Below are positions 1-64,000 of a stretch of 64,000 nucleotides of DNA, piece by piece. Within the stretch, counting starts at the first letter, position 1. Every line of letters begins with the position of its first letter. The notes below the pieces were generated by a model. The model saw only the letters and a list, made by a program, of their open reading frames with translations, ran no database searches and was not told where the DNA came from. The translations under genes and the position numbers were made by a program. The stretch lies in the NCBI GenBank assembly GCA_964566225.1, contig CAZMHV010000003.1:91151-155150 (forward strand), read 5' to 3'. Source of the stretch: an uncultured Gammaproteobacteria bacterium (lineage in GTDB: Bacteria; Patescibacteriota; Patescibacteriia; Magasanikbacterales; UBA922).

Positions 1-2
1 CT

Positions 3-410
3 ATGCCACAAGGTGGAATGGATTCACTGCTCAATAAAAATCCACTCGACATTGTGGCTCACCAATACGATATTATTGCCAATGGCCTTGAACTTTCTTC
101 TGGTGCGGTGCGCAACAAAGATGCAGACATTATGTACAAAGCCTTTGAAATGGCAGGCTACACCAACGCTGATGTTGATAAAAAATTTGGTCACATGATC
201 AAAGCCTTTGAATATGGCGCACCACCTCACTGTGGTTTTGCGCCTGGTATTGATCGTTTAGTGATGCTCTTCACTGGTGAAAAAAATATTCGCAGTGTGA
301 TTCCATTCCCAAAAAATGGTAAAGCAGAAGAACCAATGGTTGGTTCACCTGCAGAAGTCGATGTGGCACAGCTCAAGGAGCTTTCGATTAAAGTGGATAT
401 CCAAAAATAA
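3..410 (+). CDS. aspS: Class II aminoacyl-tRNA synthetase C-terminal part, most likely aspartate--tRNA ligase. Its 5' end is truncated by the window edge.
   Basis: Motif-3 region [33 protein letters not shown] is typical of class IIb aaRS (AspRS/AsnRS). The ORF runs from the window start. Confidence 0.65.
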
Positions 411-412
411 CT

Positions 413-1102
413 ATGGTTGAACTCAAGCTTCAACAATTTTCCGGTCCACTCGATTTGCTTTTGAATTTGATTGAAGAACAAAAACTTCCGATTACTGAAC
501 TTTCTATTTCTGCGGTTACAGAGCAATATCTTGAATACCTCACTTCGCTTGAACAAGAAAGTCCAGATGAAATTGCAGACTTTCTCGTTGTTGCCAGTCG
601 TATTTTGCTCATGAAAGCCAAGGCAATTTTGCCAATGTTTTTGCCCGAAGAAGAAAGTGGACCATCGCTTGAAGATCAACTGCGCATTTACAAAAAGTTT
701 GTGGAAGCCAGTCGAGTGCTCAACAAAAAATGGCTCGGGCCACTGCGTTCATTTTTTCGTTTGGAACCAGTTCGCAAAGCAGAAGGATTTGTGCCACCAG
801 AAAATGCAACCACCAAATCAATGCACAAGTCCATGCTGAACTTGGTGTCCCGCCTCAAACCACCAAAACCTTTGCCACAAATTGAAATGGATAAAACCGT
901 TTCTGTGAAAGAAGTGATTGAACGCATCAAAGACCTGCTCAAAAATCACAAACAATTTGATTTTCATAAATCTCTCAAAGAACGTGAAAACAAAACAGAA
1001 GTTATCTTGGGATTTCTCGCCTTACTTGAACTCGTGAAACAACAACTCGTCCACCTTGATCAACAATCTCATTTTGGAGATATCATGGTGAGAAAAGTGT
1101 AG
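413..1102 (+). CDS. scpA: Segregation and condensation protein A (kleisin ScpA)
   Basis: N-terminus FSGPLDLLLNLIEEQKLPITELSISAVTEQYLEYL matches the conserved ScpA start. Length is 229 aa. Confidence 0.8.
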   Translation: MVELKLQQFSGPLDLLLNLIEEQKLPITELSISAVTEQYLEYLTSLEQESPDEIADFLVVASRILLMKAKAILPMFLPEEESGPSLEDQLRIYKKFVEASRVLNKKWLGPLRSFFRLEPVRKAEGFVPPENATTKSMHKSMLNLVSRLKPPKPLPQIEMDKTVSVKEVIERIKDLLKNHKQFDFHKSLKERENKTEVILGFLALLELVKQQLVHLDQQSHFGDIMVRKV

Positions 1103-1129
1103 ATATTTATAAAATACAAATTATACTGA

Positions 1130-1302
1130 GTGGGAATACTTTTCTTTTTTCATTTTTTGATATAGGTCACCATATTTGCTTCGCTCGTTCGGAAGAGAAA
1201 ATAAATTTTCTCTTCTCTCACTCGCTTGCAAATCACCACCCTCCGCGAGGGCGGCGGTCGTAGACCCCGTTTCAAAAAATGAAAAAAGAAAAGTATTCCC
1301 AC
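1130..1302. repeat. Nested palindromic element, copy 1. It has 31-bp perfect outer inverted repeats (1130-1160 and 1272-1302) around a ~111-nt core with internal hairpins.
   Basis: Left arm gggaatacttttcttttttcattttttga is the exact reverse complement of the right arm tcaaaaaatgaaaaaagaaaagtattccc. The core contains gaagagaaaat/attttctcttc and ccctc-cgc-gaggg inner inverted repeats. It shares the motif TACTTTTCTTTTTT with the element at 7299-7443. Confidence 0.7.
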
Positions 1303-1318
1303 GATATTTTCCGCACAT

Positions 1319-1870
1319 ATGTCTCTCATTTCAAAAATCGAATCCATCCTCTTTGTCGCCAGCAAACCCCTCAGCATCTCAACCCTCGCCAAATCCCTCG
1401 AAAAAAACGAAGTGGAAGTAGAAGAAGCTGTGGAGACTCTCCGCATGAAATACAATCACGAAGAATCTGGCATTCATCTTTTGCTCGATGGAAAAAATAT
1501 TCAGTTTATCACCAATCCAGAAAACGGAGAACTCATCCGTGGATTTCTCAAGCAAGAAATTGCTGGTGAACTCACCAAAGCACAACTCGAAACCCTTACC
1601 GTTATTGGTTACCGCGGTCCAGTGTCACGCAGTGAAATTGAACAAATTCGTGGCATGAACTGTTCGGTGATTTTGCGTAACCTTATGATGCGTGGTTTGA
1701 TTGAAGAACAGTCTCATGATACACTGGTACCACTGTATACACTCTCTTTTGAAGCACTGAGTCATTTGGGTATTCACTCGGTTGAAGAACTCCCTGAATA
1801 CGAAACTCTGCATGCTCATGAATATATTCAAGCAGCCATTGCTCCGGCTCAAGAGAACGTAGAAAGTTAA
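1319..1870 (+). CDS. scpB: Segregation and condensation protein B (ScpB)
   Basis: IESILFVASKPLSISTLAKSL...LTKAQLETLTVIGYRGPVSRSEIEQIRGMNCSVILRNLMMRGLIEE matches the ScpB winged-helix pattern. Confidence 0.8.
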   Translation: MSLISKIESILFVASKPLSISTLAKSLEKNEVEVEEAVETLRMKYNHEESGIHLLLDGKNIQFITNPENGELIRGFLKQEIAGELTKAQLETLTVIGYRGPVSRSEIEQIRGMNCSVILRNLMMRGLIEEQSHDTLVPLYTLSFEALSHLGIHSVEELPEYETLHAHEYIQAAIAPAQENVES

Positions 1871-1895
1871 AAGTTAAACTTTAGATTTTTTCTCC

Positions 1896-2936: not shown

Positions 2937-2940
2937 AACA

Positions 2941-2971: not shown

Positions 2972-2974
2972 ATG

Positions 2975-3058
2975 TGCCGCGAAAGGGGGTCGAACCCTTA
3001 TGACCTTGCGGTCGCAGGATTTTGAGTCCTGTGCGTCTGCCAGTTCCGCCATCGCGGC
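2975..3058 (-). tRNA. tRNA-Leu (anticodon CAA), long variable arm
   Basis: Reverse complement folds as acceptor GCCGCGA/UCGCGGC, anticodon stem CAGGA/UCCUG with loop CUCAAAA, a 15-nt variable arm and T-arm AAGGG-UUCGACC-CCCUU. Discriminator is A. Confidence 0.8.
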
Positions 3059-6517: not shown

Positions 6518-6546
6518 TTGACAAAGTTGTCAAAAAGGAGTATAAT
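6518..6546 (+). promoter_or_regulatory. Consensus sigma70-type promoter (TTGACA-N17-TATAAT) with a palindromic -35 region, upstream of the island-A gene
   Basis: ttgacaaagttgtcaaaaaggagtataat. The sequence ttgacaa-ag-ttgtcaa is itself an inverted repeat. Confidence 0.5.
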
Positions 6547-6662: not shown

Positions 6663-7178
6663 ATGGGTTTTTTTCTCATGGTGCCGTTTTCGCTTTTCGG
6701 CATGGGCGTGGCGGTGGTTCTGGGCCTGGTTCTCTTGGCCTGGATTGGTGAGGCGGTGCTGACCGCCTTGATCTGGGCTTTCTCGATCGGGCTTGGCCTT
6801 GCGGGCTTGGTGTTTCTGTTTCGGTGGATTTACCGGGACAAAACGCCTTGGCATCTGCCGCAGGTCCAGCCTCCACCACCGTCTCCCCCGGAACCGTTTC
6901 CGCGAGTTCCTCGGGGCAGTTCACCCTCAATGGTCATCATCGAGGGGGTGCAGATTGTTGTGCAGTCAGGGGCGAATCTGCACATTCATTTGCATGCCGG
7001 CGGCGGGGAGGATCCACCAAACGTTCGTGTCGTCCCCTCACAGTCTCGTCCGGTTCGCCCGCAGGGTGAACCTGCGAAACCTTCGCCGAAAATCATCCCC
7101 CCACAGAACGGTCGTGGCCCCACCTTTGGGGACTGGAACGACCGCTATGGTGGGGGTGACGACGACGAAGACGACTGA
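6663..7178 (+). CDS. GC-rich hypothetical protein: two predicted TM helices, a Pro-rich middle (QPPPPSPPEPFP) and an acidic tail (GGGDDDEDD). Alternative in-frame starts lie at 6582 (GTG) and 6639.
   Basis: Long ORF with high third-position G/C in an AT-rich genome. A GGAG sits 7 nt before the 6663 ATG. Hydrophobic N-terminus GMGVAVVLGLVLLAWIGEAVLTALIWAFSIGLGLAGLVFLF. Confidence 0.5.
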   Translation: MGFFLMVPFSLFGMGVAVVLGLVLLAWIGEAVLTALIWAFSIGLGLAGLVFLFRWIYRDKTPWHLPQVQPPPPSPPEPFPRVPRGSSPSMVIIEGVQIVVQSGANLHIHLHAGGGEDPPNVRVVPSQSRPVRPQGEPAKPSPKIIPPQNGRGPTFGDWNDRYGGGDDDEDD

Positions 7179-7298
7179 GCTTCAACACCAAACGGCACGG
7201 GCAGCAGAGGTTTACGAAAACTCTTGCAGCTGCCCGTGCCGAGAAAGAAAAATAAACCCCCTCACAGTGGAATACTGGAGGGGATTTTTTATTTCATC

Positions 7299-7443
7299 GA
7301 GGAGAGAATTTGTACTTTTCTTTTTTGTTGGCTGCGGGATCGCTCTCATGAAGGTCCCTTCGCCCTGACGGGACTCGGGGGACCTTCATGTATTCGCTAA
7401 GTCCTCGCTCAACAAAAAAGAAAAGTACAAATTCTCTCCTCTC
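7299..7443. repeat. Nested palindromic element, copy 2. It has 32-bp perfect outer inverted repeats around a ~79-nt G+C-rich core that holds its own 12-bp inverted repeat.
   Basis: Outer arms gaggagagaatttgtacttttcttttttgttg and caacaaaaaagaaaagtacaaattctctcctc. Inner arms catgaaggtccc and gggaccttcatg. Shares TACTTTTCTTTTTT with copy 1. Lies between the convergent island-A gene and topA. Confidence 0.7.
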
Positions 7444-7463
7444 ATCAATTTTTTTAATTAAGT

Positions 7464-9782
7464 TTATTCTTCGTCAGTTTCTTTCCCTTTCTTTCCTTTT
7501 GCCTTGGTAACTTTTTTTCCTCCGCGTTTCCAGCCACCTTTTTTGGTAGGTGCTTCGTCAAGAAGTTTGGTGCAGGTTTCGAGGTCGAGTGAAGTTGGTT
7601 CTGTGTCTTTGGGGATTCGGGCATTTCGTTTGCCGTCGGTAATGTATGGTCCATAGCGACCGATTTTGACAATTACGTCACTGCCAGGAAATGTTTTGAG
7701 AAGTGATGCTGCTTGTTTTTCTTGGGCTTCCAAAATAATTTCTTTGGCGCGTGCAAAGTCAACGGTGTATGGGTCATCATTTTTTATACTGTAGTATTTG
7801 CTTCCTACTTTTACGTATGGACCAAAACGTCCAATGCCCACAATCATGTCATGGCCTTCTTCGTCTTGGCCAACATTTTTGGGAAGTTCCAAAAGTACCA
7901 AAGCTTGTTCGAGTGTAATACTTTCTGCACTCAATGTTTTTGGGATAGAAGCAAACACAGGTTTTTCCTCATCGTCTTTACTTCCTTTTTGCACAAATGG
8001 TCCAAAGCGGCCAATGCGCACAGAGATTGGTTTTTGAGATTTGGGATCAATGCCAAGTTCACGGGCTGATACAACAGATTCTTTGGAGAGTGCTTCACCT
8101 TTTTGTACAATGGATTCGTGAAATGGGTGATAGAAGGTAGCGATAATTGGTTGCCACTGTTCTTTGCCTTCCGCAATATCATCCAAATTTTCTTCCATTT
8201 GTGCTGTGAATGCGTAGTCAACAATGCTGGTGAAATGATCGACCAGTAAATCGTTTACGATAAACGCAATGTCTTTTGGTTTGAAACGTTTGTTGTCGTC
8301 GCGTTCTACATATTTATCTTCAATATTTGCCAGTGTTGGTGCGTATGTAGAAGGACGGCCAATGCCAAATTCTTCCATGGCTTTGACAATGGTAGCATCA
8401 GAGTATCGTGCAGGTGGTTCAGTAAAGTGTTGTTCTGGTTTGAGTTCATGACAATTTACGGTCTGTCCCTCTTTGAGTTCAGGCAACATTTCTTCTTTCA
8501 TGGCTTCTGGATACAGGGCAAGCCAACCTGGGAAAATCATAGATTGTCCTGTGGCGCGGAAGGTATAGTTGTTGTTTGATGTAATATCAAGAGTCGTTTT
8601 GTTGAGACGAGCTTCAGTCATTTGTGTCGCAAGTGTTCGTTTCCAAATGAGTGTATACAGTTTGAGTTGTTTGGGGTCAAGATAATTTTCCAAAGATTCT
8701 GGAGTGCGGGTAGGGTCAGTGGGGCGGATAGCTTCGTGTGCTTCTTGCGCGCCTTTACTTTTGGTTTTGAATTTTCGTGCAGAAGCGAGTTCGTATTCTT
8801 TGCCATAGGTGTCGTGAATAAATTGTTTGGCTTCACCCAAAAATTTATCTGCCAAATTCATGGAGTCAGTACGCATGTAGGTAATAAGACCCACGTGGCC
8901 TGTGCCAATGTTTACACCTTCGTAGAGTTGCTGCGCCAAGACCATGGTTTGTTTGGATGAGTATCCTAGTTTTTGATTGGCACTTTGTTGGAGTGTAGAA
9001 GTGGTAAATGGAGCCGGTGGAGTTCGTTTGGCTTCTTTTTGTTCGATGGATGAAACAGAATAATTTGCACCCTTGAGTGAGTGTAACACTTCATCCATTT
9101 TTTCTTTGGTGCCAAGTTCAAATTTATCAAGTTTTTTTCCATTGTGTGCTTGCAGCATTGCTTTCACTTCGTTTTCATTTTTTTTATTTTCTGAAAACAA
9201 CCCTTCGAGTGTCCAATATTCTTCTGGTTTGAAGGCTTGAATTTCTCGTTCACGATCCACAATGAGGCGCACCGCCACAGATTGCACGCGTCCTGCCGAG
9301 AGTCCCCGGGCTACTTTTTTCCACAAAAATGGGGAGAGTTCGTAACCCACCAGGCGGTCCAAAATACGGCGGGCTTGTTGCGCGTCCACAAGTTTTTGGT
9401 CAATATGTCTGGGGTGTGCCAGGGCCTCTTCAATGGCGTGCTGCGTAATTTCGTGAAAGACAATGCGTTTGGCCTTCTCTGGGTCAACATCAAGAATTTG
9501 GGCCAGGTGCCAAGAAATAGCTTCTCCTTCGCGGTCCTCATCGGTTGCAAATATGACTTCAGTGGCTTTTTTGGCTAAATCTTTGAGTTTCTTTACTTGG
9601 GCGCTTTTGTCTTTACTAATAATATAGTGGGGTTCAAAGGTTCCACCATCAATATCTATGCCCATTTTACTCTTTGGCAGGTCGCGTAGGTGGCCAAAAG
9701 AAGACTCCACGGCATAGGCTTTGCCGAGGAATTTGGAGATAGTTTTGGCTTTGGTAGGGGATTCTACGATGACAAGTTTCAT
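7464..9782 (-). CDS. topA: DNA topoisomerase I
   Basis: Toprim N-terminus MKLVIVESPTKAKTISKFLGK...ATDEDREGEAISWHL. Length 772 aa with a Lys-rich C-terminus. Confidence 0.9.
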   Translation of the reverse strand: MKLVIVESPTKAKTISKFLGKAYAVESSFGHLRDLPKSKMGIDIDGGTFEPHYIISKDKSAQVKKLKDLAKKATEVIFATDEDREGEAISWHLAQILDVDPEKAKRIVFHEITQHAIEEALAHPRHIDQKLVDAQQARRILDRLVGYELSPFLWKKVARGLSAGRVQSVAVRLIVDREREIQAFKPEEYWTLEGLFSENKKNENEVKAMLQAHNGKKLDKFELGTKEKMDEVLHSLKGANYSVSSIEQKEAKRTPPAPFTTSTLQQSANQKLGYSSKQTMVLAQQLYEGVNIGTGHVGLITYMRTDSMNLADKFLGEAKQFIHDTYGKEYELASARKFKTKSKGAQEAHEAIRPTDPTRTPESLENYLDPKQLKLYTLIWKRTLATQMTEARLNKTTLDITSNNNYTFRATGQSMIFPGWLALYPEAMKEEMLPELKEGQTVNCHELKPEQHFTEPPARYSDATIVKAMEEFGIGRPSTYAPTLANIEDKYVERDDNKRFKPKDIAFIVNDLLVDHFTSIVDYAFTAQMEENLDDIAEGKEQWQPIIATFYHPFHESIVQKGEALSKESVVSARELGIDPKSQKPISVRIGRFGPFVQKGSKDDEEKPVFASIPKTLSAESITLEQALVLLELPKNVGQDEEGHDMIVGIGRFGPYVKVGSKYYSIKNDDPYTVDFARAKEIILEAQEKQAASLLKTFPGSDVIVKIGRYGPYITDGKRNARIPKDTEPTSLDLETCTKLLDEAPTKKGGWKRGGKKVTKAKGKKGKETDEE

Positions 9783-40842: not shown

Positions 40843-40876
40843 AAAATGTTCTCCTTTAGTGTATAAGTGTACTTTT

Positions 40877-42596: not shown

Positions 42597-42612
42597 GTAG
42601 AGTAGAGATTGT

Positions 42613-45643: not shown

Positions 45644-45724
45644 TTTGAAGAAGTGCAATGTGAGGGAACTCGGTTGCACTTTTTTTTACTCGGTAGAGTA
45701 GAGAATATAATTTTGAATTATACT

Positions 45725-46210: not shown

Positions 46211-46235
46211 AGTTATAAAATATTTTAAATTTTCT

Positions 46236-46631
46236 ATGTCCCGTCAACGCGTCTGCGCAATCATCCTCGATAACAAAAAAATTTTCCTGGTCCGTGATTA
46301 CAAGGCAGATTTTTTTAGTATGCCTGGTGGGTCACTGGAAGAGAGTGAAGATCATACTGCGGCCATGGCGCGAGAACTCCAAGAGGAGATTGCTGTGGCA
46401 CTCACAGATATGAAATATTATTTTTCTTTTGATTTGCACAATCAAACATACAATGTGCCACAGACTGATCATGCTTACATTGTTAGCCTTGAAGGGACGC
46501 CTATTTGTTCAAGTGAAATTCGTGAGCTGGGGTGGTTTACTAAAGAAGATATTGTGTCACAAAAGGTAAAAGTGCCTGAGGCATTTTATTCAAAATTATT
46601 TCCGAAGCTTGTTGAAGAAAATTATTTATAA
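46236..46631 (+). CDS. NUDIX hydrolase
   Basis: Nudix box GGSLEESEDHTAAMARELQEEIAV. Confidence 0.75.
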   Translation: MSRQRVCAIILDNKKIFLVRDYKADFFSMPGGSLEESEDHTAAMARELQEEIAVALTDMKYYFSFDLHNQTYNVPQTDHAYIVSLEGTPICSSEIRELGWFTKEDIVSQKVKVPEAFYSKLFPKLVEENYL

Positions 46632-46639
46632 AAAATAAA

Positions 46640-46670
46640 AAACATCCACAACAAATGGATGTTTTTTCAA
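46640..46670. terminator. Bidirectional rho-independent terminator
   Basis: aaaaaacatccac-aacaa-atggatgtttttt. Confidence 0.6.
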
Positions 46671-46783
46671 CTCACCAGAAAAAGTATTTGTCTTGTAAGC
46701 TGACGGGACGTGGGGCAGCACGTCGCGAGTTGAAAGAACGAATTTCCCCTTTTCTGCCCAGGGGACGATGTGGTAGCCAGCCC

Positions 46784-47350
46784 TCAGCTGCCGATGATGT
46801 GCTCGCCGGGGTTGTCCCACCCCAGCCACACCAGGTCCCGCGCACTCGACAGGTCGCCACTGCTGAGCTCGCCGGCGTCCTGTCCCGGGTACATGGTCTG
46901 GATTTCGAAGACCCAGTGGCTTGTGTACCTCATCCTCAGCACCATGGTCATGAGGCTCGTCTTGGGGGCGAGCCGTCGACCGATGGGGAGGAAGAACGCG
47001 GTGGTCCGCTTGTTGAGCGGCTTGTACTCTCCGGCGTCGATGTCCTCCGCCGTGAGCTCGTACAGGGGGATGGTCGACGACCACCCTATGGCAGGGGGGC
47101 CGCCGAAGTCGAGCTGCAGTCGCACCGGCTTGTTGACGCTCGGCACGTTGACCAGCTTCTGGAGCTCCGCCACCAGCACCTGAGCCACCTCGGGGTCGCG
47201 AACGAAGTCGTCGAAGCAGCTCCACTCGGCGAAGTTCCCTGCCAGGGCCAACTTGCGACCGCGGAAGCAGGTTTCGGTGAGCCGCCTGCCCTGTTCGGCC
47301 GGCATGACCACCTCTACCTTCGATTTGTCCTCGAGTTCGAAAAACGGCAT
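46784..47350 (-). CDS. GC-rich hypothetical protein (188 aa)
   Basis: The minus-strand ORF has balanced amino-acid composition and G/C-ending codons. An AAAGGA RBS sits before the ATG. The opposite-strand ORF is Arg/Pro/Gly-rich antisense shadow. Confidence 0.5.
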   Translation of the reverse strand: MPFFELEDKSKVEVVMPAEQGRRLTETCFRGRKLALAGNFAEWSCFDDFVRDPEVAQVLVAELQKLVNVPSVNKPVRLQLDFGGPPAIGWSSTIPLYELTAEDIDAGEYKPLNKRTTAFFLPIGRRLAPKTSLMTMVLRMRYTSHWVFEIQTMYPGQDAGELSSGDLSSARDLVWLGWDNPGEHIIGS

Positions 47351-47472
47351 GTGCCGTCCTTTCTTCAGTGCCGGGACCGTTCCCGGTTTTTTTCTCCATT
47401 ATAGAGAGAGAAAAATCGGGAATGGTTACTACGGCAAAAAGATATCATCTTATATTATGTTTATGTATTTTT

Positions 47473-48802: not shown

Positions 48803-48836
48803 TTTTTGCAGGGACCGGGGAGGCAGAGCTTACGCA

Positions 48837-49025
48837 TCACTTTTTTGGGGGTGTGCTCTTGGCGCTGTCTCCTCGGGGGGCTCCTTCTCGTGTGAAGAGG
48901 GCGATGACGACGATAAAGGCACCCAGGCACATGGCCGGGGCGTACTCCTTGATGTTGGGGGCAAAAATGGCTGGTCCGACAGTGGACACGAGCCCAATGA
49001 GAGCGAGAACCACGGAGTTATTCAT
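48837..49025 (-). CDS. GC-rich small two-TM protein (62 aa)
   Basis: MNNSVVLALIGLVSTVGPAIFAPNIKEYAPAMCLGAFIVVIALF..., on a ~220-bp G+C-rich patch. Confidence 0.35.
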   Translation of the reverse strand: MNNSVVLALIGLVSTVGPAIFAPNIKEYAPAMCLGAFIVVIALFTREGAPRGDSAKSTPPKK

Positions 49026-49082
49026 GAGACCTCTTTTCTGTGAGTCTTCTTTGTATATCTTGTTTTGTCGTTTTTGTCAATA

Positions 49083-57500: not shown

Positions 57501-57547
57501 GGAGTGAAAAAATAAACATGATGAAAATAATTTTGGTAAAAATAAAA

Positions 57548-57582
57548 TACCGACTGTACAAAACAATCGGTATTTTTTTCGC
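57548..57582. terminator. Rho-independent terminator
   Basis: ataccga-ctgtacaaaacaa-tcggtattttttt. Confidence 0.55.
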
Positions 57583-57710
57583 CCAAATAAAGATTCCTTC
57601 ACAAAGAAATATTTATTTGGACGGCCGGGGCGAGTGCACTGCAACGAAAGTTGCTGCGCACCCGCCCGGAGGGGTGAGTGAAGAATGGTGGCGGGGCGCC
57701 GGTGGGACGC

Positions 57711-58346
57711 TCAGCTCGGGAGGTCGATCTTGCCAACACCGAGCATTTCGTCTGTGAGGTGCTGCATGTGGAGCACCTGCCAAGTGTTCTGGACCATGGT
57801 CAGCTCCATGATGTGGCCGGGCAGGAGTGGATCCGGGGCGCTGTAGTTGGGAGTCAGATCCTGCAGCAGGGCATCGATGCGACCCGGGTGGGTGTAGACC
57901 ATGATGGTGACGCCGGGCCTGAATTGGCCCAGGTGAGCACGGACGGCTTGGGCTGACCTCATTCCAAATTCCCATACATCATGTCGATAGTATGCCTTCC
58001 TCGCGATCATGTAGACTTCGGGAGTGACTCCCTCGGCTTGCGCTTGAATCTCATCGATGTTCATCCCCGCCGGAGGTGGGCACAGGTTGAAATTCGTGAG
58101 TTCTTGGGCCGTGATCAGCTTTGCTTGACTGCCTCCAATTTCGTTGTACACCATGATTGCCTGCGCAACCATTTTGGGATCTTGCGAGCACAGGATGCTG
58201 TTGATCTGAATCCCCGCGTTGCGCAGGGCGGCGGCTCGTTCCATGAGCCGTCGCTTTTCTGTGATGTCGGGCTTACGATCGTGCCCGCACACGAAGAAAA
58301 AGCGCGACTGGGAAGAGGGGAAGAAAGGGCAGAGTTTGAGAGGCAT
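57711..58346 (-). CDS. GC-rich hypothetical protein (211 aa), start taken at MPLKLCPFF
   Basis: Strong RBS AGGAGA plus a 7-nt spacer before the ATG. N-terminal segment RFFFVCGHDRKPD. High third-position G/C. No confident domain call. Confidence 0.5.
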   Translation of the reverse strand: MPLKLCPFFPSSQSRFFFVCGHDRKPDITEKRRLMERAAALRNAGIQINSILCSQDPKMVAQAIMVYNEIGGSQAKLITAQELTNFNLCPPPAGMNIDEIQAQAEGVTPEVYMIARKAYYRHDVWEFGMRSAQAVRAHLGQFRPGVTIMVYTHPGRIDALLQDLTPNYSAPDPLLPGHIMELTMVQNTWQVLHMQHLTDEMLGVGKIDLPS

Positions 58347-58399
58347 TTGTTTTCTCCTGGTCGGTAGAGTAAGACAGAACGGCACCATTGCCGGCTCCT

Positions 58400-58460
58400 C
58401 CTCGTATAGGTAGGTAGCTTTCTACCATGGAATACTCCATTGTACAAAGCTACCCACCTG
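58400..58460. promoter_or_regulatory. Operator-like nested palindrome upstream of the island-D gene
   Basis: gtagctttctac-catggaatactccattg-gtacaaagctac has 12-bp arms with one mismatch, plus an inner catgga/tccat(t/g) inverted repeat. Coordinates are +/-1. Confidence 0.35.
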
Positions 58461-58658
58461 GCCATTCATTCTTTTTGAATTGTAAAAAACTCACTCGTAT
58501 GGTCAATAAAAAACGCTGTATAGAGCATTTTTTATTATTTTTTTCCATAATGCCGAAGTATAGCAGAAATTTGGGATTTGTCAAGGTATTGAAAATGTGA
58601 GAAGAATAGTATACGATAGGTTTAAATTTGGCTAATTACAGAAAAAATCTTAGCTACT

Positions 58659-60206
58659 GTGAAAAATAATTTCATAACTATGGAACCAAAATACTTTCAA
58701 GATGAAGATGCCTGGATGCTCGGTGAAGATATCCCAAATGCTGATTTATTTTTTTCCAATATTTGGCTGAATGGTTTTGTGAGTTTTTTTGATAAAAATG
58801 TTGGCAAGGCGTACAAAAAGATTTTGTGTAAGTATGAAGGGTATCACTTGTGGTTTTATTTTGGTGAAAAAGATTCTTTTGAAGTAGCCGAATATATTGC
58901 CGAGCGAATTGTTCATGAAGCAGGCTATGCGGCTGAGGTGAATAAAAATATTATGCTTGAAGCAGACAAGCTTCGAAATTTTAGTGAAACGATTCCTCAA
59001 ACCAATCTTGACTCTCTCCCCAATGAAGAATTGTGGAGAATTTATGAAACACACAATACTATTCATAGTGAGTACTATACTTGGTGTTGGATTCCTGTGG
59101 CAGTGGACATGTTTCACAACAACTTAACCAAAAGAGTAAAAGAATACTTGCTTTCCCTCGGTGTTTCAGCAGAAAATCTCAATGAATATTTTATTACACT
59201 CACTCAACCCACAGAAAAATCTCTTATTTTTATTGAGCAAGAAGATTTACTCAAAATTGTGCAGGAGGTCCAAAAAGATGTTGAGGCAGTTGAATTGTTC
59301 AAAACAGAATCTCTACAAAATATTTTTGAGAGGCTTTCTTTACCTTTACAAAACCTCATTACTGAACATTGGAAAAAGTATTATTACACCAAGCATTTAT
59401 GGGTGAGTGGAGAGTATACCGTTGAAGAGTATTTGCATCAAATCAAAGATGTTCTCCTGAGTGCAGAGTCTGCTACTATAATTTTGGCAAAACAATATCA
59501 AGAACTCGAAAAAGCGAAACAAAAGAGACTCGCACTTATTGAACAGTTACACATTGAAGGCCAATGGCGAACGGTTCTCGATGAATTCGGGGCATTTATG
59601 GTGACCAAAATTTATCGTCGCTATGCACAGCTTTTGGCTGTTCATCACATGTCACCAATTTTGAAAGAAATAGCGAGACGAAAATTTTTGACCGAAAAAC
59701 AAGTTCGTTTTTTGCGAGTTCCTGAAGTGAAAGAATTATTGCTGAATGATAACTACAGTGAGCAAGAGTTACTCGAGCGTACCAAAATGTGTGTGTACTA
59801 TGCAGAAAAGAATTTTGAACATGTAATGATTCGTGAAGAGGCAAGTGAATATATGAAATCTGTAGAAAAAGAAATTGATACCAGCATTACCGAGCTTCGT
59901 GGTGAAAGTGCATGTATTGGTTATGCCAAGGGCGTGGTGAAAATTATTATTCGTGCCGAAGATATGCAAAAAATGAACGAGGGAGATATTCTTGTTTCTA
60001 TTGCCACTGACCCAGATATTGTTCCTGCCATGAAAAAGGCTGCTGGAATTGTAACTGAGCAAGGTGGTGTCACTTCCCATGCTGCGATTGTTTCACGCGA
60101 GTTAGGGATTCCTTGTGTGATTGGTACTAAAATTGCAACAAAAATTTTAAAGGATGGGGATGTTGTGGAAGTGGATGCAACGAAAGGTATTATTAAAAAA
60201 ATATAA
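58659..60206 (+). CDS. Protein with a large unknown N-terminal domain and a C-terminal PEP-utilizing-enzyme mobile (phosphohistidine swivel) domain
   Basis: C-terminal GDILVSIATDPDIVPAMKKAAGIVTEQGGVTSHAAIVSRELGIPCVIGTK matches the swivel-His consensus of PPDK, PEP synthase and rifampin phosphotransferase. GTG start. Confidence 0.7.
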   Translation: MKNNFITMEPKYFQDEDAWMLGEDIPNADLFFSNIWLNGFVSFFDKNVGKAYKKILCKYEGYHLWFYFGEKDSFEVAEYIAERIVHEAGYAAEVNKNIMLEADKLRNFSETIPQTNLDSLPNEELWRIYETHNTIHSEYYTWCWIPVAVDMFHNNLTKRVKEYLLSLGVSAENLNEYFITLTQPTEKSLIFIEQEDLLKIVQEVQKDVEAVELFKTESLQNIFERLSLPLQNLITEHWKKYYYTKHLWVSGEYTVEEYLHQIKDVLLSAESATIILAKQYQELEKAKQKRLALIEQLHIEGQWRTVLDEFGAFMVTKIYRRYAQLLAVHHMSPILKEIARRKFLTEKQVRFLRVPEVKELLLNDNYSEQELLERTKMCVYYAEKNFEHVMIREEASEYMKSVEKEIDTSITELRGESACIGYAKGVVKIIIRAEDMQKMNEGDILVSIATDPDIVPAMKKAAGIVTEQGGVTSHAAIVSRELGIPCVIGTKIATKILKDGDVVEVDATKGIIKKI

Positions 60207-60233
60207 TTATACTTACAATATACGTATTTCTGT

Positions 60234-61304
60234 ATGACAAAAAAATACGACACGCACCGACGTGAATATACTATCCTTGGTATCACGGCTGTCATCGAAG
60301 CCATGGTGAGTGATATTACACACAAAGTTTATCAGGGTACCTTTCCTGAATTGTTTTCTCTTGTCGTTGATGGTGTGTATTATCACTCTCTGCCTGTGAC
60401 CGGTCGAGAACAGGCAAGTCGGTTGGTGGTGAAGAGTTTTCAAGAGAAGTCCATTGACTTGTCTGCCATGTATGAAATTTTTGATGCAGAAGTGACCAAG
60501 TATGAACAGCTTATCGATCTTCCCGAAGAACAGTTTTCCTTACAGACCATTTTAGACTTTTTTTCTTTTTATAAAGAATTATTTCCGACCGCGTATGTAG
60601 GAATGGATCCAATTGATTTCACTGATACTTTATCTCCGCAAGAAAAAGAAGAATTTTTTGACTGGGCTACCAAAATTCGTCATCGTGGTGAAGTTATTTA
60701 CAAAAGAGGAGAAATGGAATTTATTCCACGCTATTTGGCTTGGTTTGCCAAACATCACGCTTCTCTGTATCGTGTAGATCACTTACTCTACTTAGTGTGT
60801 ACTGAAATGGAAAATTTTGTGCAGAAAAATGCACCACTTCCAACACCTGAGGAACTTGAACAAAGAAAAAAAGTGTTGTATGTCCATCAATATCCACCTG
60901 GTAAGATTGAATTTTATTTTGGTGAGCAAGCTCAAAAAATGATTGATCAAAAAGAATTTTTTAAAAAAGAAGTTGACCACACCGTAAATGAAGTAAAAGG
61001 TCAAGTTGGTTACCGAGGAATTGTCACTGGAAAAGTATGTATTGTCACCAGTCGTGCTGACATGAATAAATTTCAAGACGGTGATATTATTGTTTCCGAA
61101 ATGACTGATCCGAGTTATTTGCCAATTATGAAACGAGCGCTTGCGTTTGTGACTGACGAAGGTGGAATGCTCTGTCATGCTGCCATTGTGGCTCGCGAGT
61201 TGCAAAAGCCTTGTGTGATTGGAACCAAACATGCTACAAAGGTTTTTCATGATGGTGACATGATCGAAGTGAATGCAGAGCAGGGGACGGTGAAAAAAAT
61301 ATAA
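60234..61304 (+). CDS. Paralog of the preceding gene: a shorter unknown N-terminal domain plus a C-terminal PEP-utilizing-enzyme mobile (phosphohistidine) domain
   Basis: C-terminal GDIIVSEMTDPSYLPIMKRALAFVTDEGGMLCHAAIVARELQKPCVIGTK. Confidence 0.7.
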   Translation: MTKKYDTHRREYTILGITAVIEAMVSDITHKVYQGTFPELFSLVVDGVYYHSLPVTGREQASRLVVKSFQEKSIDLSAMYEIFDAEVTKYEQLIDLPEEQFSLQTILDFFSFYKELFPTAYVGMDPIDFTDTLSPQEKEEFFDWATKIRHRGEVIYKRGEMEFIPRYLAWFAKHHASLYRVDHLLYLVCTEMENFVQKNAPLPTPEELEQRKKVLYVHQYPPGKIEFYFGEQAQKMIDQKEFFKKEVDHTVNEVKGQVGYRGIVTGKVCIVTSRADMNKFQDGDIIVSEMTDPSYLPIMKRALAFVTDEGGMLCHAAIVARELQKPCVIGTKHATKVFHDGDMIEVNAEQGTVKKI

Positions 61305-61459
61305 ATAAAAAGAATCCCAGTGATATGGGATTCTTTTTCCAAATGAAGATTCTTGTTTGAAAAATATTCATGTGGCGGAACCGACGGGCATACACATGAC
61401 TTGGAAGTCACGGCATGCGCGTCGGCGACGCGGTTCGTTCGGCTTGGCCGAGAGAGGGC

Positions 61460-62071
61460 TCAGTTGCTCGAGGTCACCGAGCCGTCGGCCGGGTTGAAAA
61501 CCTGGTAGGACAGCTCCTGCATGTCCGACACCACGAGTGCGCCGGAGGGCAGGTCATCCATGTAGTCTTCTTTGAGTACGAGGAAATCGTTGAGCCCGGG
61601 CTCGATGCTGCCCCCGTGGAAGACTACCAAGAGCAGTTCGGTGAGTTCGTCCGTGTCGCGCTCATCGAGCACCTTCGTGACCCGTCGAGCCACTGAGTCG
61701 AAGGGCTCGACACCCTCGGGCAGGGCGGACTGGTCTGCCCACCACTTGATGAACCCCTGGCCGTAGGGCGGAATGCCCTTCTCGGCGTCGCCCTTGGCGA
61801 TGGCGCCGACCCCGCCAGCCGGGTTGAGGCGGGCGTCGGGGTCGTGGACGTTGACCGTGAGGCCCCCCTCCACCAAGATGGCCTGGTATCGGGCGCCGCT
61901 CTCGATCGCCCGGGGCTCCTTGCTGGTCACCAGGTTGATGGTCCTGATGTCCTCGGATCGGCACCGCTTGAGCAGCCAGCGGGCGCTGACGTCGACCTCC
62001 TCCTTGCCGAGAGGGGTGAGCACGTTGTCCTTGTGGGCGCCGTGGCGCGCGGTGGCGACGAAGTTTCCCAT
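61460..62071 (-). CDS. GC-rich histidine phosphatase superfamily protein (phosphoglycerate-mutase-like branch)
   Basis: N-terminal RHG catalytic motif MGNFVATARHGAHKDNVLTPLGKEE. Strong RBS AGGAGA-N7-ATG. High third-position G/C. Confidence 0.6.
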   Translation of the reverse strand: MGNFVATARHGAHKDNVLTPLGKEEVDVSARWLLKRCRSEDIRTINLVTSKEPRAIESGARYQAILVEGGLTVNVHDPDARLNPAGGVGAIAKGDAEKGIPPYGQGFIKWWADQSALPEGVEPFDSVARRVTKVLDERDTDELTELLLVVFHGGSIEPGLNDFLVLKEDYMDDLPSGALVVSDMQELSYQVFNPADGSVTSSN

Positions 62072-62362
62072 GATGGGATCTCCTTGGCAAGGGACGGAGT
62101 AGTTGATTGGCCCGTCCACGATTGCTCACCAGGTAAAATTATTTTTACAGGGTGAGCAACTGTGGACCAGGCTTTTCTCTCAGGTTAATAAGCCAAATTG
62201 TAACGAACCGCAGTATGGTTATTTATAAAAAATCGCTAAAATAAGCAATTTTTATACAACTTTTACCATAACGGTAGAGTGTATCAAAAAATGTTGCTTT
62301 TGTCAATGTATTTGCTGTATACTAAGCCATATAACTGACTGAACTTTTTAATCATTCTGACT

Positions 62363-63346
62363 ATGCCACACCTCAAATTTTTCAAAGAAATCAACAAAGA
62401 CGACGTTGCTATTGCCGGTGGCAAAGGCGCGTCTCTTGGTGAAATGTCTCAAGCCGGAATTCCCGTCCCACCTGGCTGTGTTGTTTTGGCCAATGCCTTT
62501 GATCGGTTCATTGAAGAAACAGAACTCAAAGAAGAAATTGCCGCGCGTATCAAAGAGGTGAATCCTGAAGATACTGCGACCATTGATCGTGCGAGTAAAA
62601 TCCTTCGTGATGTTATCAACGACACTCCGATGCCAGAAGACCTCACCCAAGAAATCCTAGCCGCCTTCGACGAACTGAGCGCCGACCACGTCGCCGTTCG
62701 CTCCAGTGCTACTGCCGAAGATTCATCGATTGCCAGTTGGGCAGGAGAACTTGAAACCTACTTGAACACAACTCGTGACAATGTCATTGAACGCGTCAAA
62801 CACTGTTGGTCATCGCTCTTCACTCCACGTGCGATTTTTTATCGCTATGAAAAAAATTTGCACGACAGTTATGTGTCAGTAGCAGTAGTGATTCAAAAAA
62901 TGGTTCAGTCCGAAATTTCTGGTGTGGCATTTACGGTTCACCCCGTGACCGAAGACCCCAATCAAATGATTCTGGAAGCTGGTTATGGACTCGGAGAGGC
63001 GATTGTGAGTGGGCAAGTGACGCCAGATAGTTACATTATTAGTAAAACAGATATGATGATCATGGATATTCACATTGGTCATCAGAATAAAAAGTTAGTG
63101 CGTGCGCATGCTGAAGCCGAAAAGCAGGGGACACCAGACGAAGAGAACACGAAAAATATGTGGATTGACCTGCATCAAGAAGAAGGGGAAAAACAAAAAC
63201 TTACTGGCAGACAAATTATTGAGCTGGCCACCCTCTGCAAACGTATTGAGGATCACTATGGATTTCCTTGTGATATTGAATGGGCTTTTGAACAAGGCAA
63301 ATTTTACATTACGCAAAGTCGACCTATCACTACCCTCAAAAAATAA
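62363..63346 (+). CDS. Stand-alone PEP/pyruvate-binding ATP-grasp domain protein (PPDK_N, as in the N-terminal ATP-binding domain of PEP synthase and rifampin phosphotransferase)
   Basis: N-terminal VAIAGGKGASLGEMSQAGIPVPPGCVVLANAF and later VAVRSSATAEDSSIASWAGE. No swivel or TIM-barrel domains are attached. Confidence 0.75.
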   Translation: MPHLKFFKEINKDDVAIAGGKGASLGEMSQAGIPVPPGCVVLANAFDRFIEETELKEEIAARIKEVNPEDTATIDRASKILRDVINDTPMPEDLTQEILAAFDELSADHVAVRSSATAEDSSIASWAGELETYLNTTRDNVIERVKHCWSSLFTPRAIFYRYEKNLHDSYVSVAVVIQKMVQSEISGVAFTVHPVTEDPNQMILEAGYGLGEAIVSGQVTPDSYIISKTDMMIMDIHIGHQNKKLVRAHAEAEKQGTPDEENTKNMWIDLHQEEGEKQKLTGRQIIELATLCKRIEDHYGFPCDIEWAFEQGKFYITQSRPITTLKK

Positions 63347-63398
63347 CTCAAAAACACGGCCAAAACCTCTCTTTATACACATATTTTCCATTTTTCCT

Positions 63399-63427
63399 TG
63401 ACACCCTTTTTGAAACCCTATACACTA
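63399..63427 (+). promoter_or_regulatory. Putative ftsZ promoter TTGACA-N17-TACACT
   Basis: ttgacaccctttttgaaaccctatacact. Confidence 0.4.
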
Positions 63428-63442
63428 TAGGGGACTGTATTT

Positions 63443-63486
63443 ATTGAACAAAAAAACGCTGAATATCGAATAATTTTTTTGTTCAA
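63443..63486 (+). promoter_or_regulatory. 13-bp perfect inverted repeat (A/U-only stem) in the ftsZ 5' leader
   Basis: ttgaacaaaaaaa-cgctgaatatcgaataa-tttttttgttcaa, ending ~17 nt before the ftsZ ATG. Confidence 0.45.
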
Positions 63487-63502
63487 TCACAATTTCTCCT
63501 CT

Positions 63503-64000
63503 ATGCCTGAAGTAAAACCTCAAATTGAAACCTTTGCCAAAATTAAAGTAGTCGGTGTTGGTGGTTCTGGTGGATCTGCTGTTGACCGCATGGTAAAGAA
63601 TGGTATTCGTGGTGTTGATTTTATTGCCATGAATACGGATGTTCAGGCATTGCATCACAATAGTGCTCCACACAAACTTCATATTGGTAAGGCTGTGACT
63701 CGTGGACTTGGTGCTGGTATGGATCCAGAAGTAGGTAAGCGCGCTGCCGAAGAATCACAAAACGAAATTCGTGAAATGCTCAAAGACGCAGATATGGTTT
63801 TTGTTACCTGTGGACTTGGTGGTGGTACTGGTTCAGGTGCGAGTCCAGTGATTGCCGAAATTGCCAAAGACTTGGGGGCGCTTACTGTGGCTGTGGTTAC
63901 CAAACCATTTTCATTTGAAGGACCTCAACGCAAAAAAGTGGGTGAAAAAGCCTACAATGATTTGGCCAAACATGTTGATACTATTATTACGATTCCCAAT
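63503..64000 (+). CDS. ftsZ: Cell division GTPase FtsZ (N-terminal part; the 3' end lies beyond the window)
   Basis: [30 protein letters not shown]...[23 protein letters not shown] matches the tubulin signature GGGTGSG. Confidence 0.9.

Follow-up and report, generated by a model that had tools for sequence, protein, structure and literature searches.

The six G+C-rich patches of the window (the whole stretch of DNA analyzed, 64,000 nucleotides) are tentatively interpreted, at somewhat less than an even chance, as resident expression units of Candidatus Magasanikbacteria (CPR) that are kept G+C-rich via GC-biased gene conversion (gBGC). The comparative data comprise two islands, F and D, with three genomes each, and island E is tied in by its leader; they indicate that F and D, and probably E, are resident and hypervariable, with a local G/C-favoring force keeping their G+C content high; this force would be biased gene conversion, if the loci are hot spots of allele exchange, or else selection acting on the transcript. 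For islands A, B and C, the same account would be an extrapolation from the common anatomy of the units.

The maximal-segment scan revealed six G+C-rich segments (59–68% G+C) against a backbone of 39.8%, namely, A (6698–7241, 61.2%), B (25056–25379, 67.6%), C (46699–47386, 64.0%), D (48808–49015, 61.1%), E (57619–58404, 58.7%) and F (61374–62133, 65.1%). Five segments had log-odds scores of 48–96 and the small segment D scored 18.7, whereas the rest of the window did not exceed 12.2. Strong 3-base periodicity was found in one frame only per segment, and thus one real CDS was identified in each patch. The GC3 of these genes, from A to F, was 0.65, 0.88, 0.88, 0.67, 0.71 and 0.89 (z = 5–9), whereas 49 backbone ORFs had 0.323 ± 0.063 and reached 0.44 at most; a TGA stop was present in 6/6 island genes and in 3/49 backbone ORFs. 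GC3 was displaced much more than GC1 and GC2, A and T were depleted symmetrically, G was approximately equal to or below C, and enrichment in the island proteins was mild (GARP 0.28–0.37). The high G+C content spanned both the CDS and the 3′ UTR, with the tract running 63–92 nt past the stop codon. All six units had their own native promoter, a G+C-rich CDS and a TGA stop, and in five of them a G+C-rich 3′ hairpin was followed by a native T-run terminator; the 3′ hairpins of A, B, E and F were stable in comparison with shuffles (z = −3 to −7). The segments of the scan agree closely in coordinates with the preliminary description, which had read from the letters an A+T-rich backbone with six patches, each with essentially one ORF with G/C-ending codons and surrounded by native-type ribosome-binding sites and terminators and, in A and B, promoters; these flanking signals were confirmed.

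The same description had kept assembly chimerism or contamination as its alternative, and abrupt changes of composition, as well as the ends of one Logan contig inside island B and of two at the edge of A, might be taken in its favor. However, Logan contigs of runs SRR16481186 and SRR16481187 were 100% identical to the window, and islands B–F were covered by the two fetched ends of a 59-kb contig (L001, L004) together with L002, L003 and L005. The junctions of F were seen again in two unrelated samples, and on a public NCBI contig of 187,920 bp genes are annotated in islands A, C, E and F. Island A was joined on its left side; L006 and L001 ended at window positions 7328 and 7412, where each 31-nt arm of a perfect inverted repeat has its inner end, and these breaks are presumably due to the assembler k-mer length. 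The repeat forms a giant hairpin apart from the island genes (7299–7444, no strand assigned; −88.5 kcal/mol, z = −14.2), for which no Rfam family was matched. Its G+C-rich core (7330–7384) had been counted as the right-hand part of patch A but lies outside the ORF, in this separate 145-nt hairpin. Since independent assemblies are identical, the patches are, as far as assembled sequences can show, not chimeras, and the probability left to an artifact is negligible.

The most detailed comparison was obtained for island F (CDS 61460–62071, minus strand, 203 aa, GC3 0.89, TGA stop), the product of which belongs to branch 1 of the histidine phosphatases (PF00300, 34.4 bits versus a cut-off of 21.7), in agreement with the PGAM-type phosphatase previously named among the island products. 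No solved structure was found for it by sequence search, and only two relatives were found in a word-indexed search of 5.8 billion proteins. In the three F alleles, the RHG and downstream His-Gly-Gly motifs, the catalytic residues and 95 of 196 gap-free alignment columns were invariant. Two further Magasanikbacteria-like contigs carry an F orthologue at the corresponding position: L007, where F adjoins PPDK_N-FtsZ-NrdR, and L008, where it adjoins a PEP-utilizer gene; the phospho-histidine (PEP-utilizer) domains next to F suggest a possible regulatory link. The GC3 of the orthologues was 0.90 in L007 and 0.93 in L008, with backbones of about 0.30. Between the window and L008, the PEP-utilizer gene was 94.9% identical at the DNA level (dS 0.205, dN 0.018) and the F 3′ UTR with the intergenic region was 97.4% identical, whereas the F CDS had an identity of 74.1% (protein 65%, dS 0.49, dN 0.26), and the hypervariable block 61479–62127 had an identity of 63–80% versus 92–100% in the flanks. 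Four-fold sites differed in 30% of cases in F versus 15% in the neighbor gene (p = 0.024), and codons for the same amino acid differed in 26% versus 11% (p = 0.0005). Relative to L007, the backbone four-fold sites were saturated (38–44% identical, dS >1); those of F were 51% identical, with 25 of the 35 differences being C<->G and A/T rare, and parsimony assigned 61 of 88 third-position changes in F to C<->G. The dN of F was 0.26, 0.33 and 0.37, with a backbone dN of 0.018 in one case and 0.14–0.22 in another; judging by these rates, the divergence of F does not scale with that of the backbone.

The elements that bracket the F coding block were conserved. The promoter and a leader of ~200 nt (62072–62306, minus strand; TTGACA-17-TACACT at 62278–62306, minus strand) contain two long predicted hairpins and a CUCC/GGAG pairing that masks the Shine-Dalgarno sequence; the leader is nearly all base-paired, its first hairpin begins a few nt past the −10 box, and 2 of its 62 predicted pairs are compensatory. 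This A+T-rich leader was 84% identical to that of L007, compared with 38–50% for control intergenic regions, and no Rfam family was found for it. Downstream are a conserved G+C-rich 3′ UTR hairpin (61374–61459, minus strand, z = −5.65) and a native T-run terminator (61307–61338). The sequences AACGAACCGC in the 3′ UTR and GCGGUUCGUU in the leader complement each other, and 8 of 300 shuffles attained such a 10-nt complementarity.

Island D (CDS 48837–49025, minus strand, GC3 0.67, TGA stop) encodes a 62-aa two-helix membrane protein, is located 34 nt upstream of a 280-aa membrane protein gene, and has a promoter-like site TTGACA-N17-TATACA (49052–49080, read from the sequence). Homologues of D at the syntenic position were found in L016 (alignment z = 9.7 versus shuffles) and L013 (z = 5.5); their amino acid identity was 23–24%, whereas that of the neighboring genes was 62–89%; GC3 in the three genomes was 0.67, 0.49 and 0.71 versus backbones of 0.32, 0.30 and 0.39, and a TGA stop was found in all three copies. 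The aligned sequences show that the coding blocks of F and D evolve many times faster than their neighbors. The same site, fast evolution and high G+C content in all genomes compared imply a maintained, locus-specific steady state, so the G+C-richness of F and D would not be that of unameliorated foreign DNA.

Island E (CDS 57711–58346, minus strand, 211 aa, GC3 0.71, TGA stop; AGGAGA 6 nt upstream of the ATG) is linked to F by its promoter and structured A+T-rich leader (58347–58584, minus strand; TTGACA-16-TATACT at 58557–58584, minus strand), which is homologous to that of F: positions 58456–58584 were matched (E = 1.4e-7) by an nhmmer model trained on F leaders alone, and the inner hairpin is common to both. 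No similarity between the E and F proteins was detectable; the full-length His_Phos_1 match of E was weak and sub-threshold (Pfam E = 0.24), and its AlphaFold2 single-sequence model (pLDDT 47) was unusable. The E unit ends with a G+C-rich 3′ UTR that includes a long hairpin (57619–57710, minus strand, z = −3.9) and a native T-run terminator (57544–57576).

It had been proposed that gene-sized fragments from one G+C-rich donor or several, such as a high-GC host, were repeatedly taken up, wired to local promoters and left with their inherited composition. The patches are indeed single-gene units, and the absence of C and E from the syntenic slots of relatives, where the neighboring 280-aa protein is 70–77% identical, is consistent with lineage-specific gain or loss. 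Moreover, the codon-position profile and TGA stops resemble genes from a ~65% G+C genome, G+C-rich stems without a T-run directly follow the stop and precede the native terminator, and the tract continues past the stop like a transferred fragment. Recent import from a G+C-rich donor was not borne out: F and D, checked in relatives, were present at the same site in diverged A+T-rich genomes with similarly anomalous composition, the synonymous turnover of F was near saturation yet still G/C, and its flanking leader was native and conserved, so that for these two islands the donor model is contradicted and would need old transfers re-imported repeatedly. The broad homologue search covered C and F among the six islands. 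No donor-like homologue of C was found in the 5.8-billion or 1.84-billion protein collections, no F homologue from a G+C-rich organism in the word-indexed 5.8-billion collection, and none of B, C or E in the plasmid collection; the actinobacterial donor suggested earlier thus found no counterpart there. The GARP of the island proteins was only mildly raised, and no integrase, flanking tRNA or repeats common to the islands were found in the window. Import from a donor is therefore considered improbable as an explanation of the six patches.

Islands A, B and C had the same anatomy. Island A (CDS 6663–7178, plus strand, 171 aa, GC3 0.65, TGA stop; the same gene call was repeated on Logan contig L006) has a promoter-like site TTGACA-N17-TATAAT (6518–6546, plus strand, read from the sequence) and encodes two predicted N-terminal membrane helices followed by a Pro-rich acidic tail, for which family searches gave no match; a G+C-rich 3′ hairpin whose 13-bp stem is perfectly paired (7193–7241, plus strand; fold of 7176–7295, −51.8 kcal/mol, z = −7.0) is followed by a native T-run terminator (~7258–7293). 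Island B (CDS 25130–25399, minus strand, 89 aa, GC3 0.88, TGA stop), for the product of which no significant family or structure match was found, has a promoter-like TTGATT-N16-TATACT (25461–25488, read from the sequence), a G+C-rich 3′ UTR with hairpins (25056–25129, minus strand, 76% G+C, z = −3.05) and a shared bidirectional native terminator (~24968–25052). Island C (CDS 46784–47350, minus strand, 188 aa, GC3 0.88, TGA stop) encodes a well-folded protein of an uncharacterized family; its G+C-rich 3′ UTR (46699–46783, minus strand) folded no better than shuffles (z = −0.5) and precedes a native T-run terminator (46637–46667). The best homologues of C were at most 41% identical, and the one with readable context was an ordinary gene (GC3 0.36) in a contig of 39% G+C; the family mean GARP of 0.26 corresponds to the amino acid composition of organisms with low to intermediate G+C content, which also speaks against a G+C-rich donor. 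Since no relatives carrying A, B or C were found in the comparative searches, these three may derive from ancient transfer.

Under gBGC, the conserved untranslated flanks would provide the homology through which recombination or transformation often exchanges alleles, and G/C-favoring repair of mismatched heteroduplexes would push freely varying sites to G or C, which would yield high GC3, TGA stops and faster amino acid change together. DprA and RadA-like genes, which are tied to competence and are weak evidence here, were found in the window. Against conversion, the rise of GC3 from 0.3 to 0.9 far exceeds the gBGC effects reported in bacteria, and conversion does not explain the conserved 3′ hairpin, which is G+C-rich without polymorphic sites for it to act on. 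In F, invariant residues were encoded by G/C-ending codons more often than variable ones (Mantel–Haenszel OR 3.05, p = 5e-4, a pseudo-replicated test because the three alleles are related); this enrichment, together with only mildly raised GC1 and GC2 at variable residues (0.62 and 0.39), would favor selection on synonymous sites rather than a bias of conversion that acts blindly.

Selection for a transcript that is rich in G+C and resists nucleases could be added to conversion or act in its place. As a full alternative, which we consider rather unlikely, it holds that these mRNAs are built for stability or controlled translation with G/C held at synonymous sites: the leader hairpin would block 5′ attack, the 3′ hairpin would block 3′ exonucleases, and the G+C-rich body would lack A/U-rich single-stranded endoribonuclease sites, while fast protein change would arise separately from diversifying or relaxed selection and allele exchange. 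Hairpins at the 5′ and 3′ ends stabilize Gram-positive mRNAs, and the nearly fully paired leader with its hairpin close after the −10 box, the stable 3′ hairpins, the extension of high G+C beyond codons, the enrichment at invariant residues and the displacement of GC3 far beyond GC1 and GC2 are in line with this. However, purifying selection should cut synonymous divergence, which in F is 2–3 times that of the neighbor gene; the 3′ region of C shows no excess stability, and no reason is known for these particular genes to need such mRNAs. A programmed diversification system other than a DGR, which would hypermutate the coding block with a G/C bias and be steered by the leader and 3′ hairpin, would fit the coincidence of the divergent and G+C-rich blocks between conserved structured elements, the rise of both dS and dN, and the shared leader of E and F with unrecognizably different coding sequences. 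It is very improbable, as neither a reverse transcriptase nor a template repeat nor another copy was found in the 64 kb, A and T were lost symmetrically, unlike in adenine-specific DGR mutagenesis, and nearly half of the gap-free F columns (95/196) and the catalytic residues are invariant. To our knowledge, no bacterial mechanism has an AT→GC bias confined to a single gene.

Among known systems, gBGC hot spots are similar to the islands in that a local gain of G+C is coupled to faster synonymous and non-synonymous change, reaches adjacent non-coding sequence and mimics selection. In human genes, gBGC yields fast-evolving, G+C-enriched exons with clustered AT→GC substitutions and excess amino acid replacement (PMC2631073, Berglund et al. 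2009), and in most bacteria it has been proposed to account for within-genome heterogeneity (PMC4450053, Lassalle et al. 2015). The islands differ in that GC3 goes from 0.3 to 0.9 in single genes, persistently across diverged genomes, a size, confinement and persistence for which, as far as found, the literature searched holds no description in bacteria, and in that conserved residues show the stronger codon bias, a pattern not expected under plain gBGC. In the hypervariable Borrelia vls locus, where gene conversion is the known mechanism, G+C content is ~20 points above the genome (49.1% vs. 28.6%) and strains differ strongly in sequence yet retain composition (PMC11499132). However, vls has a coding-strand GC skew of 0.52 with G-runs, silent cassette arrays and a surface lipoprotein product, whereas in the islands G is roughly at or below the level of C, a phosphatase of cytosolic type is among the products, and no silent copies of island genes were found in the 64 kb. 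Genomic islands of horizontal transfer share atypical G+C, GC3 and stop usage, the position of single accessory genes between housekeeping genes, and the absence of C and E from relatives; they differ from F and D, the composition of which is common to same-site orthologues across saturated synonymous divergence, and neither a donor nor mobility genes were seen. In the histidine phosphatase superfamily branch 1 (PF00300; PGAM, CobC, SixA-like), only F scores above the curated cut-off, and it is set apart from that superfamily by its small circle of relatives.

A maximal-segment scan of the window (mean G+C content 40.9%) set six segments apart from a backbone of 39.8% G+C, namely, island A at 6698–7241 (61% G+C), B at 25056–25379 (68%), C at 46699–47386 (64%), D at 48808–49015 (61%), E at 57619–58404 (59%), and F at 61374–62133 (65%); these coordinates agreed with the six G+C-rich patches in an AT-rich backbone named in the preliminary description. 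The weakest segment, D, had a log-odds score of 18.7, whereas background segments reached at most 12.2. Amid many stop-free frames, three-base periodicity was pronounced in a single frame per segment, which picks out one real gene per island and bears out the earlier view of one ORF with G/C-ending codons in each patch. The coding sequence of island A lies on the plus strand (6663–7178, 171 aa, GC3, i.e., G+C at the third codon position, 0.65), and those of B (25130–25399, 89 aa, GC3 0.88), C (46784–47350, 188 aa, 0.88), D (48837–49025, 62 aa, 0.67), E (57711–58346, 211 aa, 0.71), and F (61460–62071, 203 aa, 0.89) lie on the minus strand. In 49 backbone ORFs, GC3 was 0.323 ± 0.063 with a maximum of 0.44, placing the islands at z = 5–9. 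All six island genes ended in TGA versus 3 of the 49 backbone ORFs. Third positions were depleted in A and T alike, so the bias is not strand-specific, and the Gly/Ala/Arg/Pro (GARP) share of the island proteins was only mildly enriched (0.28–0.37 versus 0.22 in the backbone).

Structured RNA genes were ruled out as a source of the G+C peaks by the one-frame codon periodicity and by the Rfam search, in which two tRNAs were the only entries of the window to reach the gathering score. Other frames and strands of the patches also contain long ORFs (e.g., 46626–47399, 46655–47404, and 61662–62129); these were dismissed as products of the scarcity of stop codons, since G+C is distributed over their codon positions as in out-of-frame or antisense reading. 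It should be noted that gene callers mis-frame such G+C-rich genes: on the public NCBI contig (187,920 bp), genes are annotated in islands A, C, E, and F, and in the public calls (this contig and Logan) the wrong-frame minus-strand ORFs 46626–47399 (257 aa) and 61662–62129 (155 aa) replace the true C and F genes. Consequently, the true C and F proteins are absent from protein databases, and their homologues are hidden.

Every unit had its own sigma-70-like promoter and ribosome-binding site. In five of the six units (all except D), a G+C-rich 3' UTR of 63–92 nt directly followed the TGA; for A, B, E, and F, folding of this UTR gave a stable hairpin (z = −3 to −7), and a native A+T-rich T-run terminator lay downstream of it. 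The backbone-like character of the flanking signals, also claimed earlier, was thus upheld. In the opposite orientation to island C, a plus-strand terminator-like hairpin with a T-run (47370–47387) lies within its 5' UTR and may stop antisense transcription through C. Between the island A terminator and the topA stop lies a 145-nt near-perfect hairpin (7299–7444; −88.5 kcal/mol, z = −14) with perfect, A+T-rich outer arms of 31 nt and a G+C-rich inner stem; it matched no Rfam family, and no credible match at E ≤ 1 was obtained around 7170–7470. The imperfect palindrome after each ORF led us to consider integron cassettes with attC sites or IS200/IS605-like ends; inspection by eye found no RYYYAAC/GTTRRRY cores, arrays, or nearby integrase or transposase genes, and this origin was rejected. 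The combination of a UGA stop and a downstream hairpin in every island also prompted us to consider selenocysteine insertion with a SECIS element; this reading was discarded because the F alleles from different genomes end at nearly the same alignment position (that of contig L007 is four residues shorter), and in the F 3' UTR 19 of 28 in-frame third positions are G or C by manual count, close to its overall 66% G+C and without excess.

Chimerism or contamination, raised in the preliminary description, does not account for the islands. Logan contigs from runs SRR16481186 and SRR16481187, retrieved by exact-protein look-ups, were 100% identical to the window. Islands B–F were covered by a 59-kb contig (both ends fetched, L001 and L004) and by the shorter contigs L002, L003, and L005, and island A was joined to its left neighbour on a separate contig. 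Contigs L006 and L001 stop at window positions 7328 and 7412, where the 31-nt arms of the perfect inverted repeat have their inner ends, and these breaks are presumably due to the k-mer length of the assembler.

The relatives of the backbone proteins belonged to Candidatus Magasanikbacteria (CPR/Patescibacteria): MurG was 54–58% identical to MurG of named MAGs, and a 280-aa membrane protein had a graded series of homologues in this group. A genome scan with MurG gave three loci (54–58% identity), and a metagenome scan with the PEP-utilizer protein gave one distant locus, all without comparable islands. Contig L011, retrieved as a Magasanikbacteria-like relative, has 37% G+C and contains, between ligA-like and gatC-like genes, a 54% G+C stretch (781–1255) without a credible ORF or an Rfam match, which may be a structured RNA of no known family. 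Compositional outliers of the opposite kind were also present in the window, at 41972–43095, 45704–46237, and 40573–40976 (24–27% G+C), overlapping an NYN-domain gene, an acetyltransferase gene, and unnamed ORFs. The tRNA-Arg gene at 18702–18776 has the anticodon GCG, not the usual ACG.

Repeated import of single genes from a G+C-rich donor had been proposed for the islands, and their composition and codon usage are indeed atypical. Homologues in G+C-rich organisms of the donor type were, however, not found for C and F in large protein collections, nor was amelioration seen in diverged relatives, in which the F and D orthologues at the same site keep high GC3. Mobility signatures were lacking in the window: the two tRNA genes (2974–3058 and 18702–18776) adjoin no island, the neighbours of the islands are housekeeping genes, and the islands share no repeats, only local hairpins being present. 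A plasmid collection yielded no tblastn match for B, C, and E. A defence or phage origin was rejected as well: the six island proteins had no PADLOC match and no significant PHROG match (the sole one, for A, had E = 0.08), and viral contigs scanned with E and F yielded no relevant match (the phage contig L017, uniformly of 51% G+C, matched partially at 34%).

For C, a word-indexed search of a large protein collection gave no match, and the best match in an exhaustive search had 41% identity. The one homologue of C whose context was read has an ordinary GC3 (0.36) and lies on a contig of 39% G+C, and the mean GARP share of the family (0.26) is unlike that of G+C-rich organisms. Presence in relatives, proposed earlier as a check, differed between islands: C and E were missing from the syntenic slots of L014, L013, and L016; F was present at the same site and G+C-rich in L007 and L008, and D was present at the same site with raised GC3 in L016 and L013. 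For F and D, donor import is contradicted by these orthologues of similar composition in related A+T-rich genomes, the very outcome by which the preliminary description had proposed to judge it, and the expected best matches in high-GC taxa did not appear for the islands searched. The donor model may still apply to A, B, and C.

The product of island F belongs to branch 1 of the histidine phosphatases, scoring 34.4 bits with PF00300 (curated cut-off 21.7, E = 2.2 × 10−8), in keeping with the PGAM-type phosphatase noted earlier among the island genes. A word-indexed search of 5.8 billion proteins gave only two relatives, with 65% and 55% identity, both on A+T-rich Magasanikbacteria-like contigs and at the same chromosomal site: F adjoins PPDK_N-FtsZ-NrdR in L007, as in the window, and a PEP-utilizer gene in L008. 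These copies have 68% G+C and GC3 of 0.90 and 0.93, respectively (0.89 in the window), next to neighbours with GC3 of about 0.30. R9, H10, and G11 (RHG) and H152, G153, and G154 (HGG) are invariant in the three alleles, as are 95 of 196 gap-free alignment columns, and dN/dS is below 1; by these usual signs, the protein probably remains functional. In the region 57711–63346, two PEP-utilizer genes, with phospho-histidine domains, are flanked by E and F, which also precede a PPDK_N gene; this arrangement hints that these split proteins, similar to pyruvate phosphate dikinase, are substrates of the F phosphatase. In the comparison of the window with the distant relative L007, FtsZ is 82% identical at the protein level, backbone dS exceeds 1, and backbone four-fold sites are 38–44% identical. 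Four-fold sites of F are 51% identical, with 25 of 35 differences being C↔G and A/T staying rare, and by parsimony 61 of 88 third-position changes in F are C↔G. This turnover argues that the G+C-richness of F is a steady state, not a residue awaiting amelioration.

The same pattern was observed for island D. Between the genes of L27 and of the 280-aa membrane protein, the window, L016, and L013 each encode a small membrane protein with two helices (alignment scores 5.5–11 sd above shuffles), with GC3 of 0.67, 0.49, and 0.71 versus 0.32, 0.30, and 0.39 in the respective backbones and a TGA stop in all three copies. The D protein of the window is only 23–24% identical to those of L016 and L013, whereas neighbouring proteins are 62–89% identical. 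The comparison of three genomes each for F and D shows that there are resident genes under native regulation that evolve rapidly and in which a high G+C content appears to be actively maintained.

Measured from the −35 box through the second hairpin, the F leaders of the window and L007 are 84% identical, whereas control intergenic regions of these two genomes are 38–50% identical. The leader folds into two long hairpins and a CUCC/GGAG pairing that covers the Shine–Dalgarno sequence, with two compensatory pairs, and Rfam gave no credible match around F at E ≤ 1. When only the three F leaders were used to build a profile, it matched the region upstream of E (E = 1.4 × 10−7); the promoter and the inner hairpin, AAAAA(U/A)UGCU-N6-AGCG(A/U)UUUUU, are common to both. 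These structured A+T-rich leaders lie on the minus strand at 62072–62306 (F) and 58347–58584 (E) of the window, with counterparts at 3728–3900 of L007 and 2–177 of L008, and are kept across diverged genomes. The E and F proteins have no detectable similarity (hhalign probability 0.1 for E against the F alignment), so the two units share only a type of leader, which is a candidate new cis-regulatory RNA of CPR bacteria. Protein paralogy of E and F was not demonstrable, the E structure model also being too poor for use, and the profile match of E to the branch-1 histidine phosphatases stayed below the curated threshold (PF00300, 11.5 bits against 21.7, E = 0.24). In each of the three genomes, ten nucleotides of the F leader, GCGGTTCGTT, have their complement in the 3' UTR (pair GCGGUUCGUU / AACGAACCGC, minus strand, window 62200–62215 and 61374–61459) and could represent RNA 5'–3' pairing or a DNA inverted repeat around the coding sequence. 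C has an 11-nt 5'/3' pair whose upstream copy lies inside the neighbouring gene. Such repeats were found in none of A, B, D, and E, and a role as inversion sites was considered but not adopted.

The window and L008 are closer relatives, and their comparison delimits the divergent part of the unit. The adjacent PEP-utilizer gene is 94.9% identical in DNA (dS 0.205, dN 0.018), the 3' UTR with the intergenic region 97.4%, and the F leader upstream of the divergent block 92–98% per 60-nt window, while the F coding block is 74.1% identical in DNA and 65% in protein (dS 0.49, dN 0.26). Differences at four-fold sites amount to 30% in F versus 15% in the neighbour (p = 0.024), and codons for the same amino acid differ in 26% versus 11% (p = 0.0005). 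The divergent block, 61479–62127, is the G+C-rich block of F minus the conserved 3' hairpin. The three alleles are almost equidistant (dN 0.26–0.37), with backbone distances differing about ten-fold, which is suggestive of recombination at the locus, although mosaic alleles cannot be recognized from three sequences. F combines a local rise in G+C with a substitution rate above that of its neighbour, as expected of a hot spot of GC-biased gene conversion (gBGC). As to the maintaining force, we infer, ranking this first, that a G/C-favouring fixation bias of the gBGC type, tied to allele exchange, would keep the islands G+C-rich: no other explanation links the G+C enrichment to the increase in both dS and dN, and it accounts for the coincidence of the G+C-rich and divergent blocks. 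Such conversion is proposed to act across bacteria (PMC4450053), and in humans it gives rise to exons with accelerated evolution and enriched G+C (PMC2631073); the vls gene-conversion loci of Borrelia, described below, are a further precedent.

Selection on the transcript ranks closely behind. In F, codons ending in G or C are more frequent at invariant residues (OR 3.05, p = 5 × 10−4, with pseudo-replicated counts), GC1 and GC2 at its variable residues are only mildly raised, and the 3' hairpin, which does not vary, is likewise G+C-rich; moreover, the layout, with hairpins at the 5' and 3' ends of a G+C-rich body, resembles that of stable Gram-positive mRNAs. However, synonymous divergence is raised, not lowered, which speaks against such selection. 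Targeted hypermutation of the coding block is very improbable, and no machinery for it was seen: with regard to diversity-generating retroelements (DGRs), no second copy of any island was found in the window or the fetched loci, and no reverse transcriptase appeared among the Pfam names of the window genes (all but about 10 kb scanned). It is conceivable, though we consider it unlikely, that these units are cis-defined expression cassettes of CPR bacteria (conserved structured leader, hypervariable coding block, and conserved 3' hairpin), with a dedicated process diversifying the coding block and raising its GC3 to about 0.9. This process would be a bacterial gBGC hot spot of exceptional strength or, alternatively, a non-DGR system for the programmed diversification of whole genes. 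Likewise conceivable but unlikely is that the high-G+C-type codon usage of the islands serves expression in, or in step with, a G+C-rich host.

Atypical G+C content is routinely taken as a sign of recent horizontal transfer, a reading that fails its own test here: the anomaly is inherited, stable in its site, and kept across saturated synonymous divergence. If confirmed, the islands would offer a clean natural experiment, in which the same gene is compared with its own flanks in several genomes, on whether gBGC or selection underlies the G+C push against universal AT-biased mutation. The leader common to E and F may, in turn, be a new regulatory element of CPR bacteria.

The islands differ from DGR targets in that DGR variation is adenine-specific, whereas the depletion of A and T in the islands is symmetric. 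The vls gene-conversion loci of Borrelia, held at 49% G+C in genomes of 28.6% (PMC11499132), have a strong coding-strand GC skew with G-runs, whereas on the sense strand of islands B, D, E, and F C is at least as frequent as G; vls also has an array of silent donor cassettes, unlike the islands, of which no partial copies were found in the window or the fetched loci. Meanwhile, vls and islands F and D are alike in that a G+C content high relative to the genome is kept across divergent strains or genomes.
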